The notes: generated by a model not told the origin, from the letters alone. Positions 4,060 to 57,851 are shown, counted from the stretch's first letter. The stretch: 64,000 bases of DNA from a virus (IMGVR_UViG_3300017722_005389); one strand, 5' to 3'. Made by a program: numbers and translations.

Positions 4060-4524
4060 ATGGCAAAATATTGGACTGATGATGAAGGTCTTGAAAACAT
4101 GAAAAAATATTGTGTTGAACAAGATAGATGTCAATCGGAAGTTAGAAGCAAACTTATAGATCACCAAATATACGGTGAAAGAACGGAAGGTATCATAGCG
4201 GATTTGATTTCCGAAGGATACATAGATGAGCAAAGGTTTGCAAATTCATATACCAGGGGGAAGTTCAGAATGAATCATTGGGGCAAAACAAAAATCAAAC
4301 AAGGATTAAAGCTGAAGCAGATATCGGAGTATTGCATCAAAAGAGCTTTTAAAGAGATTGATGATGAAGTTTATTTAGAAACCTTATCAAATCTTCTAAA
4401 GAAAAAAGTATCTTCAATATCTGGAAATACTTATCAAAAGAAACAAAAACTAATTCAATACGCTCTTTCAAAAGGCTTCGAAAATTATGCTATTGAAATA
4501 GCTTTAGAAAATGTTAGCTTCTAA
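4060..4524 (+). CDS. recX: RecX regulatory protein, Bacteroidota type
   Basis: YC..QDRC..EVR.KL, GYIDEQRFA..Y.RGKFR.NHWG..KI, K.I.YAL.KGF motifs. Confidence 0.9.
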   Translation: MAKYWTDDEGLENMKKYCVEQDRCQSEVRSKLIDHQIYGERTEGIIADLISEGYIDEQRFANSYTRGKFRMNHWGKTKIKQGLKLKQISEYCIKRAFKEIDDEVYLETLSNLLKKKVSSISGNTYQKKQKLIQYALSKGFENYAIEIALENVSF

Positions 4525-12176: not shown

Positions 12177-13010
12177 ATGAAATTCATTTATTCTATCTTT
12201 AGAAAATATAAGTTCTCATTATTACTTATATATTTTTACATGTTAGTTGCACAATTATTATTTTTGGCTGAACCATTCATACTTGGGAAGGCTATTGATG
12301 GATTGTTAACAAAAAATTATATTTGGTTAATAGTATTTTTAGCTGTTGAACTTTTACACAATGTTTTTATGTATCGAAGAATGGTGTTTGATACTAAAGT
12401 ATATGTTAAAATTTATAATGACATAATCTTTAATTTCTTAAGAAACAACAAAGAGGTTGACATTTCAGCTAAGATCGCAAGAACAGATATGTCACGTAGT
12501 ATAATAGGTTTTTTAGAAGGAGATATTCATTTTTTTATAATGGCAATTGTTACTGTCATCGGAAGTCTTTTTTTTATATTTATGCAGCATGCTTTAACTG
12601 GAGTTATTGTAGTTTGTTCGATACTGCCTATTACAATAACTGCAATAGTATTCTATAAAAAAATTGCCCAGTCTACTAAAGTTGGAAACACTCATTACGA
12701 ACAAAAGGCTAGTATTATGCATTCTGAGGATGAATCTCAAATTGATACTTATTTCAAAAGAAGAGCCAGGATCATTGTGATGCAATCCACATTACAAGGA
12801 AGAAATTGGGTTTCATTGAATGTTGCAAAGACAATTTTTCTTGTCTTATCATTATTTATTTTCACAAGTAAAAATATAGATATGACTCAAGGAGAAGCTA
12901 TTGCAATGTACGCCTACCTCAATCAGTTTATAATAGCTTTAATGTCTATTCCAATTGCAATGGAAACTATAACAAGAATTAAAGATGTTATAGGTAGAAT
13001 TAAATCGTAA
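12177..13010 (+). CDS. ABC transporter six-TM membrane domain, stand-alone
   Basis: L.EPF.LG.AID.LL, RR..DT.VY, multiple TM helices; no Walker motifs nearby. Confidence 0.7.
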   Translation: MKFIYSIFRKYKFSLLLIYFYMLVAQLLFLAEPFILGKAIDGLLTKNYIWLIVFLAVELLHNVFMYRRMVFDTKVYVKIYNDIIFNFLRNNKEVDISAKIARTDMSRSIIGFLEGDIHFFIMAIVTVIGSLFFIFMQHALTGVIVVCSILPITITAIVFYKKIAQSTKVGNTHYEQKASIMHSEDESQIDTYFKRRARIIVMQSTLQGRNWVSLNVAKTIFLVLSLFIFTSKNIDMTQGEAIAMYAYLNQFIIALMSIPIAMETITRIKDVIGRIKS

Positions 13011-13471: not shown

Positions 13472-13774
13472 ATGAAAAAAATTGAAGACAAAATTAAATT
13501 TGTAGAGAAGTCAATTCTCGAAATCAAATCAATGATGGAAAAATCTAATGCTTTATATAAATTAGGTGTGGATATATTAGAAGTTGATATGGGTATTGAA
13601 TTAGTTATTGAATCATTTAAGTATATTTTCAATGAAAGTATATGTGAAACGATCTCATGGTGGATATTCGAAGATGTTGAAAAAACCATAGATGTAAATG
13701 GTAAAACATACAATCTTGAAAAATTAGAAGATTTATTAAAATTTATTAATGACGATTATAAAGGTGTATTATAA
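13472..13774 (+). CDS. Hypothetical protein
   Basis: ISWWIFE, LEDL..FI pattern. Confidence 0.6.
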   Translation: MKKIEDKIKFVEKSILEIKSMMEKSNALYKLGVDILEVDMGIELVIESFKYIFNESICETISWWIFEDVEKTIDVNGKTYNLEKLEDLLKFINDDYKGVL

Positions 13775-13873
13775 TTTCTTAGGAGCAATCATTGTTCTTT
13801 TGAAAGGATTTTTTAGTACAAATTTTAGATATAAAACAAATAAAACTAAATGAGACAAATACCTTGTTAGGCT

Positions 13874-14140
13874 ATGTTTAAAATATTCAAGAGTTACATT
13901 AAATGGAAACTTATCTCTATAATAAAGGATAAGCTGATACACTATTTATCGGAGAAACACAATTATTCACAAAGACAAAATGAATGGAAGTGCAAGGTTT
14001 ATGATGGTAAATGCTTAACAAAGGAACGATTTGAAAAAGAGCAAGAGGAGCAGATACGATGGTCGAATGAGCAATGGAAAGTTAATCATCATAAATATGA
14101 AGCGGTTTTGGAGATACTTAGAATAGTGGAGGGTCTGTAA
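13874..14140 (+). CDS. Hypothetical protein, cassette-like (GTTAGGC core site 2 nt before ATG)
   Basis: GTTAGGC at 13866-13872; attC-like arm follows the stop. Confidence 0.65.
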   Translation: MFKIFKSYIKWKLISIIKDKLIHYLSEKHNYSQRQNEWKCKVYDGKCLTKERFEKEQEEQIRWSNEQWKVNHHKYEAVLEILRIVEGL

Positions 14141-14147
14141 ATATTGT

Positions 14148-14361
14148 CTATAACGGTTCTCGGCTATACGTCAGGTTTTTTGCGAATTTGAAACACTAAA
14201 ATTAAAATATATGATGCGAGTAATTGAAATGACACACTCTGAAAAAGTAGAGATGTATCAAATGATTGAAAAAGACAGATTGATAGAAATGCTGATAGAG
14301 GCAAATAATGTTATTAACCGACTAACGGAAGTAAAAAACTTGCGTATAGCCGATGTTAGTG
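14148..14361 (+). mobile_element. Long integron attC-like site with an ORF start in its loop
   Basis: CTATAAC..CGGCTATACG-T-CAGGTTTTTT pairs with AAAAAACTTG-CGTATAGCCG..GTTAGTG; one extrahelical base. Confidence 0.65.
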
Positions 14362-14450
14362 GTTCGTTGCCATGCCATCATAACTATATACAAAAAGACA
14401 CTTATTGGAAAAGTTGCACTCATTGTGGAATGATAGCCCCATTAGGGTAA
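14211..14450 (+). CDS. Hypothetical protein spanning the attC-like R' site; C-terminal CxxC
   Basis: Junction reads LRIADVSGS; ACCACTAAC follows the stop. Confidence 0.6.
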   Translation: MMRVIEMTHSEKVEMYQMIEKDRLIEMLIEANNVINRLTEVKNLRIADVSGSLPCHHNYIQKDTYWKSCTHCGMIAPLG

Positions 14451-14508
14451 TGACCACTAACTAAAATATATATACACCTCAAAACAACTCACTTCAAAAA
14501 ATAAAATT

Positions 14509-14886
14509 ATGGAAATTAAAAAATTTGAAATGTACCTAGATGGTGGTACAATTGAACTAACGACAGATAAAGGAATTTTCTGTTTTGACAAAAGAATTAG
14601 AAGTAGTACAAAGGGTAGATTATACGATGGTTATCCTAAAGATGATAATTCTAACCTAATAGAAAATTCAGTTGATTTGGAACAAGAACTAATTGAACAA
14701 TTAAAATTGTTTAAGAGTGACTTCTATCAAAGTTCAATTGATTACTTTATTAACTCAAACAAAAATAATATTAGTGTTAACGAAGTGGAGTTTTGTAATT
14801 GTGGTAATCCAAGTGGTGGACATCATTGCTATGTAGATGAAAATATAATTGAATGTGCTGATTGTGGGAAACAATTACAAAATTAA
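14509..14886 (+). CDS. Hypothetical protein with C-terminal Zn-ribbon segment
   Basis: CNC..CADC; AACACTAAC at the stop. Confidence 0.6.
   Translation: MEIKKFEMYLDGGTIELTTDKGIFCFDKRIRSSTKGRLYDGYPKDDNSNLIENSVDLEQELIEQLKLFKSDFYQSSIDYFINSNKNNISVNEVEFCNCGNPSGGHHCYVDENIIECADCGKQLQN
14684..14759 (+). repeat. 76-bp exact direct repeat, copy 1 (copy 2 at 15522-15597)
   Basis: AAGAACTAATTGAACAA...TAACTCAAA occurs twice, encoding ELIEQLKLFKSDFYQSSIDYFINS. Confidence 0.9.
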
Positions 14887-14978
14887 CACTAACTAATCGC
14901 TAACCGCAATACTCTTATATTATTAATATGAATGTAAAAGAATATTTGAAATGATAATATTTATATATAAAAGAAAAG

Positions 14979-15488
14979 ATGAATGATTTGAGAAAGTTTA
15001 TTAAAAATATTATAAAAGAATTTTTAAATGAACAACAAATGTTAAACAGTGATGGTATATGGTATCACGGTAGTGATTTTAAAAAACCAAATTTTGATTC
15101 TGATTTTAAACCTATTTTTTTTACTAAAAGTAAAGAGTATGCTGAAGGTTATGGTAAGTTTGTTAATTCATATAAATTAAACATAAAAAATCCATTAGAT
15201 ACAAGAATAGAAAAAGATTTAATATTTTATAATGAAAAATTCATACCTTGGACTAAAGAGTATAAATACACTGAAAAAGATGGTAGATATAATACATTAG
15301 ATAAAGGATTGGCTGTTCCTATGATAACAGCAAATTTATTGTATCTGTTTTTACGAAAATCAAAAAGAGAAGGATTAAATCATAATTATGATGGTGTTAT
15401 TGTTGATGAATCGGGATTTGAATTTGATAACGAGTTGGCAAAATATTCTTTATTTCCTTTGTCATTCACACAAATTTTAAATATATGA
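14979..15488 (+). CDS. Leader-bearing ADP-ribosyltransferase (ART-PolyVal-like)
   Basis: MNDLRKFIKNIIKEFLNE; WYHGS, IFFT.SKEYA..YG, L.IKNPLD, YDGVI, F...QI; TATTTATA at 14958. Confidence 0.7.
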   Translation: MNDLRKFIKNIIKEFLNEQQMLNSDGIWYHGSDFKKPNFDSDFKPIFFTKSKEYAEGYGKFVNSYKLNIKNPLDTRIEKDLIFYNEKFIPWTKEYKYTEKDGRYNTLDKGLAVPMITANLLYLFLRKSKREGLNHNYDGVIVDESGFEFDNELAKYSLFPLSFTQILNI

Positions 15489-16027
15489 AAAAAGTAGAAA
15501 TGGTAAAAACAATTGAGTTCAAAGAACTAATTGAACAATTAAAATTGTTTAAGAGTGACTTCTATCAAAGTTCAATTGATTACTTTATTAACTCAAAAAA
15601 AATAAATATGGAAAACTTAAAAGTAAAATACTTAGGCGTTGTTATTGGATATACTTATGATGGGAAAAAAATAGAATTTTTAGATAATGAACATTCTAAA
15701 GAAATTCAAAAAACACTATCAGAAGGTCACACAATAGGTCTATCATCAAGACGAATGGGGACTGTTGGCGAAAATGGTTATGTTAATTATGAAAAAATAA
15801 CTGAGTACAATGTTATCAATCGTCTTGATGAAATAATTAACTCAAAACAAAAAATACAAATGATAACCGAAGAAGAATACTTAAAAGCAAAGCAGATAGT
15901 TCAAGAATATGAAAAACAATTGGATATATCTAATGTTAGTTGTAGTTATATTGATAAATTAGGTAATGATGAACTAAAACAACGTGAAATAGATAGAAAA
16001 TGGGCTAAGGATAGAAATATATTATAA
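15485..16027 (+). CDS. Mosaic hypothetical protein (real start may be MENLK at ~15608)
   Basis: Contains repeat copy 2 and GTTAGTTGTA at 15935. Confidence 0.55.
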   Translation: MKKVEMVKTIEFKELIEQLKLFKSDFYQSSIDYFINSKKINMENLKVKYLGVVIGYTYDGKKIEFLDNEHSKEIQKTLSEGHTIGLSSRRMGTVGENGYVNYEKITEYNVINRLDEIINSKQKIQMITEEEYLKAKQIVQEYEKQLDISNVSCSYIDKLGNDELKQREIDRKWAKDRNIL

Positions 16028-16104
16028 TTACAACTAACTATCGCTAACCGCAATGCTCTTATATTACTAATATTGCTGTATAAGCCTAATAATTTCAATT
16101 AAAT

Positions 16105-16977
16105 ATGATAATATCTATCTCTGGAAAAAAACAGTCTGGTAAAGACACGATTGCTGACATTATAAAGTCACTCATATATTGCCATATTGATGGCACTGAA
16201 CTTACAGAAGAAAATTTTGAATCTATAAGACATTGTAGGATTCATAATTACAAAGTCAAAAAATTCGCAGGAAAGCTTAAAGAAGTTGCAGCAATAATGC
16301 TTGGATGTAATCCTAAAGATTTTGAATCAGAAGAATTTAAAAATAGCATCCTTGGAGAAGAATGGTGGTACTATCAAGATAATGTGAACAATAAGTTTTT
16401 AGCCCCTTATTTGACTAAGTTTAGGTCTGAATCAGAAAATAAATTGTTACTTGAAAACAATTATGCTCTTTTGATGAGAACGACTCCAAGAACATTCCTT
16501 CAGAGATTGGCAACAGATGCTGTCAGAGAAAATTTACATTCTTGTTCTTGGATAAATTCCACCTTAGCAGATTATAACCCCAAAGAATTTTGGGTTATAA
16601 CAGATACAAGATTTGAGAATGAATTAAATGCTATAAAATACAAGGAACCTAAATTTTTTAATATTAGAGTTGAAAGATTACAATCTTTTGAAGATTGGTG
16701 TAACCAATATAAAGATTATGTAACTTTTATCAAAAATTTTGAACACATGGATGATAAGATATCTTCTAATGGTTTTTGGAGTTTATTGCATACCTCTAAA
16801 GGATATTTTAAACCTAATGAAGAAACCTTTACAACTCTAATTAATAATCTCAGTCATGAAAGTGAAACTCAATTAGATCATTATAATAACCTGGATTTTT
16901 TTATTGAAAATAAAGGTTCTATTGGAGATTTAATAGATAGAGTTAAATGGTTTATGATCGAAAATAAATTACTTTAA
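16105..16977 (+). CDS. Deoxynucleoside monophosphate kinase (T4 gp1-like)
   Basis: ISGKKQSGKDT P-loop, KFA..LK, PR..LQ..., VITD.RF.NE, H.SE. Confidence 0.8.
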   Translation: MIISISGKKQSGKDTIADIIKSLIYCHIDGTELTEENFESIRHCRIHNYKVKKFAGKLKEVAAIMLGCNPKDFESEEFKNSILGEEWWYYQDNVNNKFLAPYLTKFRSESENKLLLENNYALLMRTTPRTFLQRLATDAVRENLHSCSWINSTLADYNPKEFWVITDTRFENELNAIKYKEPKFFNIRVERLQSFEDWCNQYKDYVTFIKNFEHMDDKISSNGFWSLLHTSKGYFKPNEETFTTLINNLSHESETQLDHYNNLDFFIENKGSIGDLIDRVKWFMIENKLL

Positions 16978-40336: not shown

Positions 40337-40522
40337 TTATTTGTTTTTCATTTGAGGATACCACTCATCCTTAAACGCAATATAATCTTGTAAAGTGTTC
40401 ATTTCATCAAGTTCAATCCTTGTAAATAAATCTTCAATTGCAAAATAAACAATTGTTGAATTATTAGGATTCATAGCATCTTGAATCAATCTCCACGATC
40501 TTAACACAAATTCTTTTTCCAT
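40337..40522 (-). CDS. Hypothetical protein flanked by attC-like half sites
   Basis: Start re-called to MEKEF (track 40567). Confidence 0.55.
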   Translation of the reverse strand: MEKEFVLRSWRLIQDAMNPNNSTIVYFAIEDLFTRIELDEMNTLQDYIAFKDEWYPQMKNK

Positions 40523-40582
40523 AGGTATAATTTTTGTTTTACATACATATACCCAACCGTTATACACAATGCTACCAAAGTG

Positions 40583-40966
40583 CTAATATTTGAGTTCAAA
40601 GTTTTTAAAATCAATATTTATAATTTCAATATTATTAGGTTCAATATTTGAAAAATATCTAAATTCTTTTGGTTCAACCCCATTAATACCATCTTTATAC
40701 CAACCTTCACTTGAATTTATTTCATTCAGTTCCACATTTACTTTTAAAACAACAGCTTTATTAGTTTTAACCCAACCGTTTGTAAGCATTGTCTTTGAAA
40801 TAAATTCAATATCATTGGTTAAAAATATTGGTTGCATCCCATAATTTGATTTATATCTTTTATGAGCATCTTTTCTACAAAATCCCGTTTTACCAGAATT
40901 TATTTTTAACCCTTCTGTTAGTATTGAGGTTAGATATTTTTCTTTTGTTATGTGGTATAATTCCAT
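40583..40966 (-). CDS. Small ART-fold protein (H-x-x-T..I...GL; Tpt1/DarT-like)
   Basis: LYHIT..Y..SIL.EGL, IFLT, VL.V, E..Y...I.P..I. Confidence 0.55.
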   Translation of the reverse strand: MELYHITKEKYLTSILTEGLKINSGKTGFCRKDAHKRYKSNYGMQPIFLTNDIEFISKTMLTNGWVKTNKAVVLKVNVELNEINSSEGWYKDGINGVEPKEFRYFSNIEPNNIEIINIDFKNFELKY

Positions 40967-47963: not shown

Positions 47964-48060
47964 AGTCCTGTGGCGGAATTGGTAGACGCACCGAAAGGTA
48001 GGAACGGTATGGAACCCGATTAAATAATCCTAATTACAGGTTCAAATCCTGTCAGGACCA
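47964..48060 (+). tRNA. tRNA-like RNA, class II (Leu-like D/T arms), non-canonical anticodon arm
   Basis: GTCCTG/CAGGAC acceptor, TGGCGGAATTGGTAGACGC D-arm, ACAGG-TTCAAAT-CCTGT T-arm; ACCG/CGGT stem with 11-nt loop; ends ACAA not ACCA. Confidence 0.65.
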
Positions 48061-57011: not shown

Positions 57012-57851
57012 TCAATAAATTTCATCTAAGTCGATTCCGTGAGTTTCATACCACCATTCTTTTGACTTATTAGAATGTTTATCCTTTAATCTGTTATATC
57101 GTTCCAAAATTTTGTTTTGGCGTTCAATTTCATTATTAAAAAACTCATGTTCTAATACTTCTCTACACTTGTATATTTCACGAAGTATTTTACGTAAAAC
57201 ATAACCTTGTTTTAGATTAGAGGGTATATAACCACTTTCTATAATTTTTAGAGCCGTATCTTTGAGTGTTTCAACTTTATCTATTTTTTTACCATTGACA
57301 AACATTTCAAGTCTTTCAAGCCCAAATCCAACATCAATACAATTATCAAGTGGGTTGACAATATTACCAATTTCAATACCATCAACAAAAAATTCTGTAC
57401 AATAACCTCCTATTTCACCATCGCTCCAATGACAGTTTTCATCGTCTACTATTACATCCTCAATGCCCAGTTGATTATAATATCCAAGCCACTCTTTTCT
57501 GTCACTATGAATTGTAACATAATCGGGTGTAATACCTATTTTTTTTAAGAATGTAACCCAAAAGATAATAGTATCTTCAATAGACATCTCTCTGAATGAG
57601 AATAACCCAATCATATTAAAATAGAGCAAATGGGATAAATCGCCTATTTCTTCAAAGTCATTCATTCGAATACAAGCTTGAACATTTGAAACAGTATTTT
57701 TATATTCGCTATCTTTGAATTGACATTTGAATTTTTGCATTCCTGCAGGGCAAAACAAAGTTGTATTGTCATAAGGATTTACTTTGTTTTCAATGCTAAA
57801 GAAGATATTTTTTTCTTCGCAAAATTTTTGGTATTCTTCAATAATATTCAT
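57012..57851 (-). CDS. Stand-alone alanyl-tRNA synthetase aminoacylation domain (minimal AlaRS)
   Basis: TLFCPAGMQ.FK, VQ.CIR.ND...IGD..H..YFNM.G.FSF, NCHWS.G..GG.C.E, EIGN.V, ID.GFGLERL, SN..QGYVLR...R. Confidence 0.85.
   Translation of the reverse strand: MNIIEEYQKFCEEKNIFFSIENKVNPYDNTTLFCPAGMQKFKCQFKDSEYKNTVSNVQACIRMNDFEEIGDLSHLLYFNMIGLFSFREMSIEDTIIFWVTFLKKIGITPDYVTIHSDRKEWLGYYNQLGIEDVIVDDENCHWSDGEIGGYCTEFFVDGIEIGNIVNPLDNCIDVGFGLERLEMFVNGKKIDKVETLKDTALKIIESGYIPSNLKQGYVLRKILREIYKCREVLEHEFFNNEIERQNKILERYNRLKDKHSNKSKEWWYETHGIDLDEIY

Follow-up and report, generated by a model that had tools for sequence, protein, structure and literature searches.

Integrons are known for moving whole genes, but at the locus described here the logic of cassettes appears to reach below the gene level, which raises the question of how small viral proteins come to be put together from exchangeable parts, and by what agency. 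The locus lies between 13866 and 16066 in a stretch of DNA of 64,000 nucleotides (nt) from a virus, IMGVR_UViG_3300017722_005389 (the window, by which the whole stretch is always meant), and an initial annotation had described it as carrying integron attC-like sites inside open reading frames (ORFs), which would delimit C-terminal cassettes of about 100 bp. Comparison with related loci leads to the reading that we consider probable, though with much room for error: the region would be an orphan and partly scrambled stretch of a cassette system of Bacteroidota phages and of some Bacteroidota chromosomes, in which heads and tails of small proteins are joined in frame by a recombinase.

Exchange of protein ends at a fixed joint

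The ORF of 79 amino acids (aa) at 14211-14450 (+ strand) consists of a head (residues 1-50, 14211-14360) and a tail (14361-14447; GSLPCHH...CTHCG), and the two are found apart from one another in other genomes: among 120 homologues, 21 have head and tail together, 39 the head with other tails, and 60 the tail with other heads. In 28 of the 39 head-only homologues the similarity to the head stops at residue 49-50 (...ADVS), and in 56 of the 60 tail-only ones that to the tail begins at its first residue (G1), with xVS preceding. The head thus occurs with at least 15 unrelated tails, and the tail, of about 30 residues and zinc-ribbon-like, with at least 35 heads, the junction being nearly always VS↓G (GTTAGT↓GG in the DNA; here and below the arrow marks the joint or break). 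In L043, L045 and L042 the window's head stands, together with the hairpin described below, ahead of other tails. The same holds for other parts, as the tail encoded by a second unit, U2, is found behind at least four other N-termini (P0086-P0089), and the head MITEEEY...ISNVS precedes three different tails. The junction peptides given in the initial annotation (ADVSGS, NISV and SNVSCS) are correct, and two of the tails are rich in cysteine, as it had said; when the tails were compared with Pfam, P0129 alone passed the zinc-ribbon threshold, the others remaining below the cut-off.

In the AlphaFold model of the 79-aa protein, two helices are followed by a low-confidence linker and a small beta domain, and the predicted confidence (pLDDT) falls below 50 at residues 48-52 only, that is, at the head/tail junction, which the model would make a linker. 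The phase of the boxes is also nearly constant: GTTA boxes inside genes are in phase 0, with GTT as a valine codon, in 16 of 19 cases (hand count in the gene tables of relatives), whereas about 40-50% would be expected for GTTAG boxes, because TAG excludes one phase. A crossover at a box in this phase joins any head to any tail in frame, and the free combination of both at VS↓G follows from it. The proposal of the initial annotation, an in-frame swapping of C-termini by attC-type recombination, has therefore to be divided, since the swapping at GTTAG is visible in relatives, while the canonical consensus and size of attC are not those of the sites found. As a description of the product of evolution, to judge from the sequences compared, the in-frame exchange of C-termini at the GTT site holds.

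Many unrelated heads of this tail family end in (A)LRQP(L/P)VS or LRI(A/H)DVS. The QP of these ends appears to come from a CAACC that pairs with the conserved GGTTG after TAAC and, if so, the DNA site would dictate a part of the peptide.

Boxes, units and a hairpin site

All the strings on which the initial annotation relied are found where it had placed them, including the three GTT-like pairs, GTTAGTGGT at 14355 with ACCACTAAC at 14453, ATTAGTGTT at 14770 with AACACTAAC at 14885, and GTTAGTTGTA at 15935 with TACAACTAAC at 16029. It is their meaning that changes: these pairs, which had been taken for attC-like sites, are in each case the two halves of an R box that bracket a unit, and only 14148-14363 is attC-like. 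The general form of the unit is GTTA-N4-YA at the start and TR-N4-TAAC at the end, with arms of typically exactly 10 bp. Unit U1 (GTTAGTGGT ... ACCACTAAC; 14355-14461, +, 107 nt) is the tail cassette of ORF 14211 and encodes the whole of its tail. Unit U2 ((A)TTAGTGTTAA ... TTAACACTAAC; 14770-14893, +, 124 nt) encodes a Cys/His-rich tail, has an additional inner stem of 12 bp (14791-14802/14871-14882), and starts with ATTA in the window and with GTTA in L010, L013 and L015. Unit U3 (GTTAGTTGTAGTTATA ... TATAATTACAACTAAC; 15935-16038, +, 104 nt) has arms of 16 pairs, one of them G.T. A fourth unit-like pair (GTTAATTAT ... ATAATTAAC; 15782-15841, +, 60 nt) ends at a right-arm box of the INSKQK type, described below, and is the weakest of the four (fold z = -0.8).

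The attC-like hairpin site (14148-14363, +) is composed of CTATAAC (14148-14154), a spacer GGTTC, a 5' arm, a loop, a 3' arm, a spacer T and GTTAGTGGT (14355-14363). The long hairpin that had been pointed out is real: its arms, 14160-14183 and 14331-14353, form 23 pairs, G.T at two positions, and leave one T bulged, and they pair on the sense strand around a loop of 147 nt, with spacers of 5 nt on one side and 1 nt on the other. Folded as RNA, it has z = -3.5, and none of 200 shuffles was as good. The start and the first 50 codons of ORF 14211 lie in this loop and in the 3' arm. A homologous hairpin with the same bulged T and a loop of 7 nt is found at 1276-1336 of L032.

In the relatives, the hairpins between units have the form TAAC↓GG(T/C)T-stem-loop-stem-T(T)↓GTTA, to which 14148-14363 conforms, and their best pairing is on the sense strand. 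Their loops are either short, often with the conserved sequence TCGTTTTAATG, which was not found in the window, or long (75-150 nt) and occupied by the start of the next gene. The sites of the relatives span 48-130 nt, and that of the window 216 nt. The motif CTATAACGGTT does not recur along the window, which has two good copies of it only.

A family of units with paired arms

The relatives used for counting are loci defined by what they share (the deoxynucleoside monophosphate kinase (dNMP kinase) gene, the 86-aa gene described below, the tails), and window and relatives together amount to 176 kb. They hold 42 units, against 7.9±3.0 in shuffled sequence (maximum 17 in 200 shuffles), an enrichment of about 5-fold, although the related loci are partly redundant, so that this count, like that of the break points given below, overstates the independent events. 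The complementarity of R' and R'' is thus enriched over shuffles, a point by which the initial annotation had allowed itself to be refuted. The most frequent length of the arms is exactly 10 (25 of the 42 units), whereas the shuffles are dominated by 9. Three of the window's four GTTA..TAAC units, together with U2, fall within 2.3 kb; seven units are found within 4.2 kb of the 59-kb contig L010, and the units of L010 and L032 enclose whole genes, among them methyltransferase genes.

The arms vary together. Within one tail family, the window has GTTAGTGGT/ACCACTAAC, L049 has GTTATAGGT, and L047 and L048 have GTTATGGGT/ACCTATAAC; elsewhere the same head and hairpin are followed by a different tail with matched arms of its own, GTTAGCAGTA/TACTGCTAAC. 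It could be argued that these are chance inverted repeats in AT-rich DNA, and that VSG is no more than a conserved protein linker. The window alone would agree with this, given that perfect inverted repeats of 9 nt or longer number 141 over its whole length against 131±13 in shuffles, without enrichment, that its own four GTTA..TAAC units are not significant alone (shuffle mean 2.2), and that one relative, L042, keeps VS with other codons. The enrichment and the sharp arm length speak against it, as do the compensatory changes in the arms, the fact that homologous blocks end arm to arm, and the right arms that lie in untranslated DNA, that of U3 for example, and still match the left arms. For the family as a whole this reading is refuted, and hardly any credence is left to it; it is possible only for the pairs 15782-15841 and 40818-40910.

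The arms of U3 enclose two further unrelated interiors, in L006 (191 nt) and in L015 (172 nt). One arm family with three cargoes, perfect inverted repeats that bound the units, and a U2 that stays open in frame when inverted are what would be expected of miniature transposons with terminal inverted repeats, or of invertible segments of the kind of a shufflon or the G segment of phage Mu. We regard this as very improbable: the flanks have no target-site duplication, the arms differ among units and remain complementary, which is unlike the site of a transposase, no relative has a unit in inverted orientation, and no serine invertase or transposase is found among the window ORFs of at least 150 aa.

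A pattern search for the short-loop hairpin (loop TCGTTTTAATG) in IMG/VR contigs and in genome contigs found it in at least 120 of the former and 62 of the latter, almost all being of Bacteroidota, and the cassette system is therefore widespread. The labels of a few of the 62 genome contigs (L171-L232) are Methanolobus, Saccharibacteria, Gammaproteobacteria or Cloacimonadota, and the contigs in question are short pieces of metagenome-assembled genomes and probably represent mis-binned phage DNA. In five Bacteroidota genome contigs, a gene of the beta-lactamase family (PF00144, 136 bits) is located 12 nt (median) from the hairpin, and in L206 this gene (536-1645) is bracketed by a unit (531-1655).

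Where homology ends

The initial annotation would also have been contradicted by homologues without breakpoints at the GTT sites, and the homologues do break there. Over all related loci, 44 of the 278 internal ends of homology are at most 12 nt from the end of a unit, when 5.1±2.2 would be expected. It had, however, placed the break point at GTT, and this needs correction: within 25 nt there are 51 ends at TAAC ends and 16 at GTTA starts, so that the main point is TAA↓C, to the left of the hairpin, and G↓TTA is a minor one.

Individual comparisons illustrate this at the level of the nucleotide. The window at 14771-14893 is 99.2% identical to L010 at 4125-4247, arm to arm, with dissimilar flanks; a block of hairpin and head is near-identical from TAAC↓GGTT to GATGTTAG in four contexts, with unrelated sequence on both sides; and between L022 and L024, whose flanks are 98% identical, the block replaced is a hairpin with its unit, with TATAAC at both borders. 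In the window, in L001 and L004, in L005 and in L006, the variable array stops exactly at ...TAAC↓ before the leader of the dNMP kinase gene.

A recombinase at the end of the array

All ORFs of the 182 hairpin loci among the matches listed were clustered with no prior choice, and the top families among these were N6_N4 methyltransferases (23 loci) and tyrosine recombinases of about 266 aa, all of one family (17 loci). In each of the 14 viral loci among these matches that have it, the recombinase gene follows the array downstream and reads in its direction, and in most of them its start is separated from the last unit by about 40-55 nt. This spacer, TAAC↓TA..ATATATACAC, resembles the window at 14462-14490, within an array-end-type sequence (TAAAATATATATACACCTC...; 14462-14508, +) that directly follows the TAAC of U1 and is also present in L005.

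The 266-aa enzyme belongs to the Xer/IntI clade; it scores 150-158 bits with TIGR02249 (cut-off 265), in two stretches, and 172-195 with XerA (cut-off 220). By these profile scores, the enzyme linked to the arrays of the relatives is Xer-like and not IntI, the recombinase that the initial annotation had in mind, and it lies below the cut-off for integron integrases. The initial annotation did say that the window has no IntI and that the sites would act in trans or be a relic resembling the clusters of attC sites without integrase known as CALIN, and this fits, as no recombinase is found among the window ORFs of at least 150 aa. L007, which has the window's 86-aa gene at 94.7% nucleotide identity, also encodes the recombinase, and in the 180-kb contig L251 the recombinase is beside a unit that bears the arms of the 86-aa gene. 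Four of the six large contigs with the hairpin have one recombinase gene each. Relatives found through the 734-aa protein (30-62% identity) have no tyrosine recombinase, which says little on the window's own genome.

The likeness to integrons suggests a further reading, that of a classical integron remnant, a CALIN with true attC sites served by a host IntI. The layout follows the logic of cassettes, with AAC/GTT cores, and CALINs have been described in virulent phages (Qi, Rajabal, Ghaly, Tetu, Gillings 2023, PMC9892861), where the TATAAC...GTTATA sites of PH101 and TJE1, as well as P12002L_attC2, were recombined by IntI1. The array of Polaribacter phage P12002L has the same architecture as the one described here. 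Its P12002L_attC1 (Table S3, PMC9892861), called there by HattCI only, is of the present hairpin type, and it was, of the six phage sites, the one not recombined by IntI1, the sole failure; the P12002L_attC2 that was recombined begins at the GCCTAAC box of the neighbouring unit (PMC9892861). In the window, in addition, AAC and GTT are present in every case, but the RYYYAAC/GTTRRRY consensus as a whole is mostly absent: GTTAGGC (13866) fits it fully, but CTATAAC, GTTAGTG, GTTAGTT and GTTATAA do not. The R box has 10 bp and not 7, the window's site has 216 nt against 57-141 nt for attC, the ORFs are inverted relative to the site orientation that the position of the recombinase implies, and the linked enzyme, of 266 aa, is below the integron-integrase cut-off. 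We therefore hold a true integron remnant to be improbable.

How the joints could be made

If we return to the cassette system with its own enzyme, the module would read on the sense strand ...TAA↓C-GGTT-(stem-loop-stem)-T-GTTA-N4-YA ... gene ... TR-N4-TAA↓C, and in circular form its two ends would close into one attC-like site, with an R box of 10 bp, spacers of 4-5 nt against 1-2 nt, a stem sometimes with a bulged base, and a variable loop. The Xer-like tyrosine recombinase that relatives encode at the array end would recombine the folded sense strand at TAA↓C, and a cut there would match the main break point. More rarely it may act on the other strand, which corresponds to G↓TTA in the sense of the gene, and this break point would fall inside ORFs. 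The GTTA box comes to be inside the ORF because many modules accommodate the start codon, with 18-50 codons at the beginning of the gene, in the hairpin loop and its 3' arm. The window would be served in trans, if the system has any activity in this phage, or would be a relic.

A more ambitious view can be built on this, which we put forward tentatively and with less than balanced confidence: an integron-like box standardized in coding regions, in phase 0 and at a flexible linker, would be a viral analogue of exon shuffling, in which a recombinase acting on either folded strand builds two-part proteins from heads encoded in loops and tail cassettes of about 100 bp, as a library shared by Bacteroidota phages. 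If the joints were indeed made by a recombinase, this would amount to a programmed building of proteins from parts in viruses. The cassette system would also explain the turnover of accessory genes (methyltransferases, small ORFans) in large phages of Flavobacteriia and their relatives, and a natural, phase-fixed system for the in-frame exchange of domains could be used in the laboratory.

Several observations weigh against this mechanism. Some of them are equally well accommodated by a role in RNA, in which the hairpins would open the start codon or serve processing or termination, the arms would insulate the message, and the shuffling would be due to homology or microhomology, as in PeSL cassettes. 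A hand tally of the pairs other than Watson-Crick in about 28 hairpins gave, on the sense strand, 39 G.T against 3 A.C, a bias indicating that the sense strand, as DNA or as RNA, has been kept foldable, and it fits both equally. The same is true of the ATG that many modules have inside the loop, 54-66 nt before the GTTA box. Stems of 17-23 bp would suit RNase III, the ends of several 3' arms, TATATTTG/TTTGTTAT, are similar to the -7 promoter box of Bacteroidota or to a U-tract, the hairpin moves together with the downstream gene (L022 against L024), some break points are off the boxes, and there is the PeSL precedent in T4-type phages (PMC2839356, PMC4122927). A role in RNA does not, however, explain why the core is the AAC/GTT of integron sites, nor why at least 14 contigs have, where the array ends, a dedicated tyrosine recombinase of constant side and orientation. 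The sharp length of the arms (10 bp) with fixed terminal bases is unlike a helix kept by pairing alone, and identical arms surround unrelated interiors. The promoter scan gave 19 sigma-70-like sites against 21.6±5.2 in shuffles, with a consensus that does not model Bacteroidota promoters, and the sole terminator-like site is not at the hairpin. As a full explanation, a role in RNA seems unlikely, if far from negligible, and it could coexist with recombination.

The remaining points against a recombinase-made array come from the loci themselves. Between 13.8 and 16.1 kb the region has one full hairpin site only, and the window has no recombinase among its ORFs of at least 150 aa. Two complete phage genomes with the hairpin, of 310-325 kb, have no such recombinase either, and it follows that orphan arrays exist. 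P12002L_attC1, as said, failed with IntI1, and the redundancy of the loci reduces the weight of the counts. The swap in L045 is 13 nt inside the unit and not at G↓TT, and the head homologue L042 has its VS as GTC AGC, so that the peptide is kept without the DNA box. Finally, several junctions are off the boxes, namely the left border with L005 at 13845, the read-throughs in runs of A, and the 88-nt duplication described below.

Relation to known systems

The system is like integrons and CALINs in that single-gene units form arrays, separated by imperfect hairpins with AAC...GTT cores, the end box of a unit is complementary to its own start, the spacers are asymmetric and some stems have a bulged base, the array of relatives ends with the gene of a tyrosine recombinase (Xer/IntI clade) whose transcription leads away from the units, and methyltransferase genes are frequent cargo. 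It differs in its R box of 10 bp (GTTA-N4-YA) instead of 7 (GTTRRRY), in its inverted ORFs, with the site at the 5' end of the gene and often containing the start codon, in its loops of up to about 150 nt and its enzyme of 266 aa below the integron-integrase cut-off and, above all, in that one box lies inside ORFs, in phase 0, where protein heads and tails are exchanged. To our knowledge, such a head/tail exchange within ORFs has not been reported for integrons.

PeSL cassettes (Arbiol et al. 2010, PMC2839356; Comeau et al. 2014, PMC4122927) also concern small accessory genes in hyperplastic regions of related large phages, with repeated stem-loops as exchange points, but they consist of promoter and terminator and are exchanged by homologous recombination, without unit-specific complementary ends, an AAC/GTT core, a linked recombinase or in-frame exchange below the gene level. 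Shufflons and invertible tail-fibre segments (Rci/sfx; Gin/gix) share the recombination sites inside a coding region and the in-frame C-terminal exchange; those, however, invert resident segments between conserved repeats of one genome, whereas here no inversion is seen, the arms are specific to each unit, and the alternative tails are those of other genomes. In polymorphic toxins there is likewise a short junction motif (after VENN in CdiA, DPxGL in Rhs) between a constant N-terminal part and interchangeable C-terminal domains; there the motif is a feature of protein or homology, with orphan modules downstream, while here it is a DNA box with a complementary partner after the stop.

A literature search found no paper on the Xer-like enzyme, on unit-specific boxes of 10 bp, or on in-frame exchange below the gene level, and it found the GTTA/TAAC arrays of Bacteroidota phages in print only as the CALIN of P12002L. 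What is new is thus the in-frame shuffling of heads and tails, and what is known is that clusters of attC-like sites exist in virulent phages (PMC9892861).

Other rearrangements and features of the region

The junctions away from the boxes indicate that ordinary recombination has also shaped the region. A direct repeat of 88 nt has its first copy at 14684-14771 (+), which corresponds to the 3' part of the 86-aa gene and includes the right-arm box, and its second, 97% identical, at 15522-15609; another is of about 55 nt (14886-14940/16030-16084, 87%), its first copy (14886-14940, +) being of the conserved region that usually stands upstream of the dNMP kinase gene and has its start directly after TAAC, and a 3' fragment of another gene (14928-14953) comes next. 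The two repeats flank an ADP-ribosyltransferase-like gene (14979-15488), whose 169-aa product has a weak ART-PolyVal match (E = 1.3e-4, below the cut-off); its homologues in L022-L030 are annotated with the same Pfam family. It seems that a segment with the dNMP-kinase leader at its end underwent duplication and was refilled afterwards. The leader's second copy and the kinase gene itself (16105-16977) form a conserved anchor at 16039-16977 (+). Fragments of a gene that is intact in L001, L002 and L006 are found at 13772-13806 (...NFLGAIIVLLK...) and 14928-14953 (...MNVKEYLK, followed by the stop), separated by about 1.1 kb of cassette material.

The 86-aa gene is common, most of its homologues terminating in ...INSKQK, and in relatives it is a unit by itself, with arms of 14 bp (GTTATTTTTGTTTT/AAAACAAAAATAAC). 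In the window it is part of an ORF of 125 aa (14509-14886, +), composed of the 86-aa protein (14509-14766) and the U2 tail, a fusion due to a run of A in CTCAAAACAAAAATAA that is one base shorter there. The right-arm box of this gene, CTCAAAACAAAAATAAC, occurs three times, at 14749-14771, 15587-15609 and 15836-15866, and in the three copies the runs of A are altered, so that the stop is lost and adjacent ORFs become fused. The unrelated contig P0005 has the same read-through joint, which is therefore probably not a sequencing error. A composite ORF of 180 aa (15485-16027, +) has three such pieces: a start with a copy of the 3' end of the 86-aa gene, a gene that stands alone in relatives (ATG 15609, MENLKVKYLG...), and a head (ATG 15861, MITEEEYLKAKQIVQEYEKQLDISNVS) with the U3 tail, the stops at the joints having gone within runs of A.

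Two other origins were considered and rejected for these structures. A diversity-generating retroelement does not agree with the 88-nt repeat, which differs at 3 clustered positions that are not adenines, and no reverse transcriptase was found with Pfam. Spliceosomal or intron-like signals (GTTAGT ... ACTAAC) would be out of place in a phage genome, where there is no AG acceptor or other intron feature, and the boxes are explained by the cassette family.

At the left border of the region, GTTAGGC (13866-13872, +), a left-arm (R'-type) box, is 1 nt before the ATG at 13874, as the initial annotation had it, and between this box and CTATAAC there is an ORF of 88 aa (13874-14140, +). The scans for inverted repeats and units found no complementary right arm (TAGCCTAAC) for it, and it would thus be the start of a recombinant or decayed unit. 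The box GTTAGGCAC(A), as at 13866, flanks the methyltransferase units of L032 and of Polaribacter phage P12002L, where the methyltransferase gene beside attC1 is enclosed by GTTAGGCAC/GTGCCTAAC. A minor second site of the same kind is located at 40500-40910 (- strand), with GTGTATAAC↓GGTT and a short hairpin before an ATG (about 40566-40520) and with a unit-like pair at 40818-40910 (GTTAAAAATA/TATTTTTAAC).

The window and its phage

A megablast of the window at 12-18 kb against 50,697 phage records gave no matches, and Rfam made no call in the cassette region apart from a chance match (E = 4.5). The source is a large phage of Bacteroidota. The window is AT-rich, with a G+C content of 25-35%, and dense with small ORFs. 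Among the proteins encoded are a dNMP kinase, a thymidylate synthase, a PolB-type exonuclease, a holin and a ParB-like protein, and the nearest counterparts of the exonuclease are in Flavobacterium and Cellulophaga phages. The nearest IMG/VR relative is a fragment of 41 kb rated 15% complete, which indicates a genome of roughly 270 kb.

Some other genes of the window deserve mention. A RecX-like protein (RecX_HTH2 and RecX_HTH3), a regulator of RecA, is encoded by the phage at 4060-4524, and at 12177-13010 there is a membrane protein of 277 aa that matches ABC_membrane_3 (66 bits) and has no ATPase domain. The tRNA at 47964-48060 is recognized by Rfam (37 bits) and not reported by ARAGORN, and on the minus strand, at 57012-57851, an ORF of 279 aa matches the N-terminal part only of class II alanyl-tRNA synthetase (tRNA-synt_2c, 74 bits).

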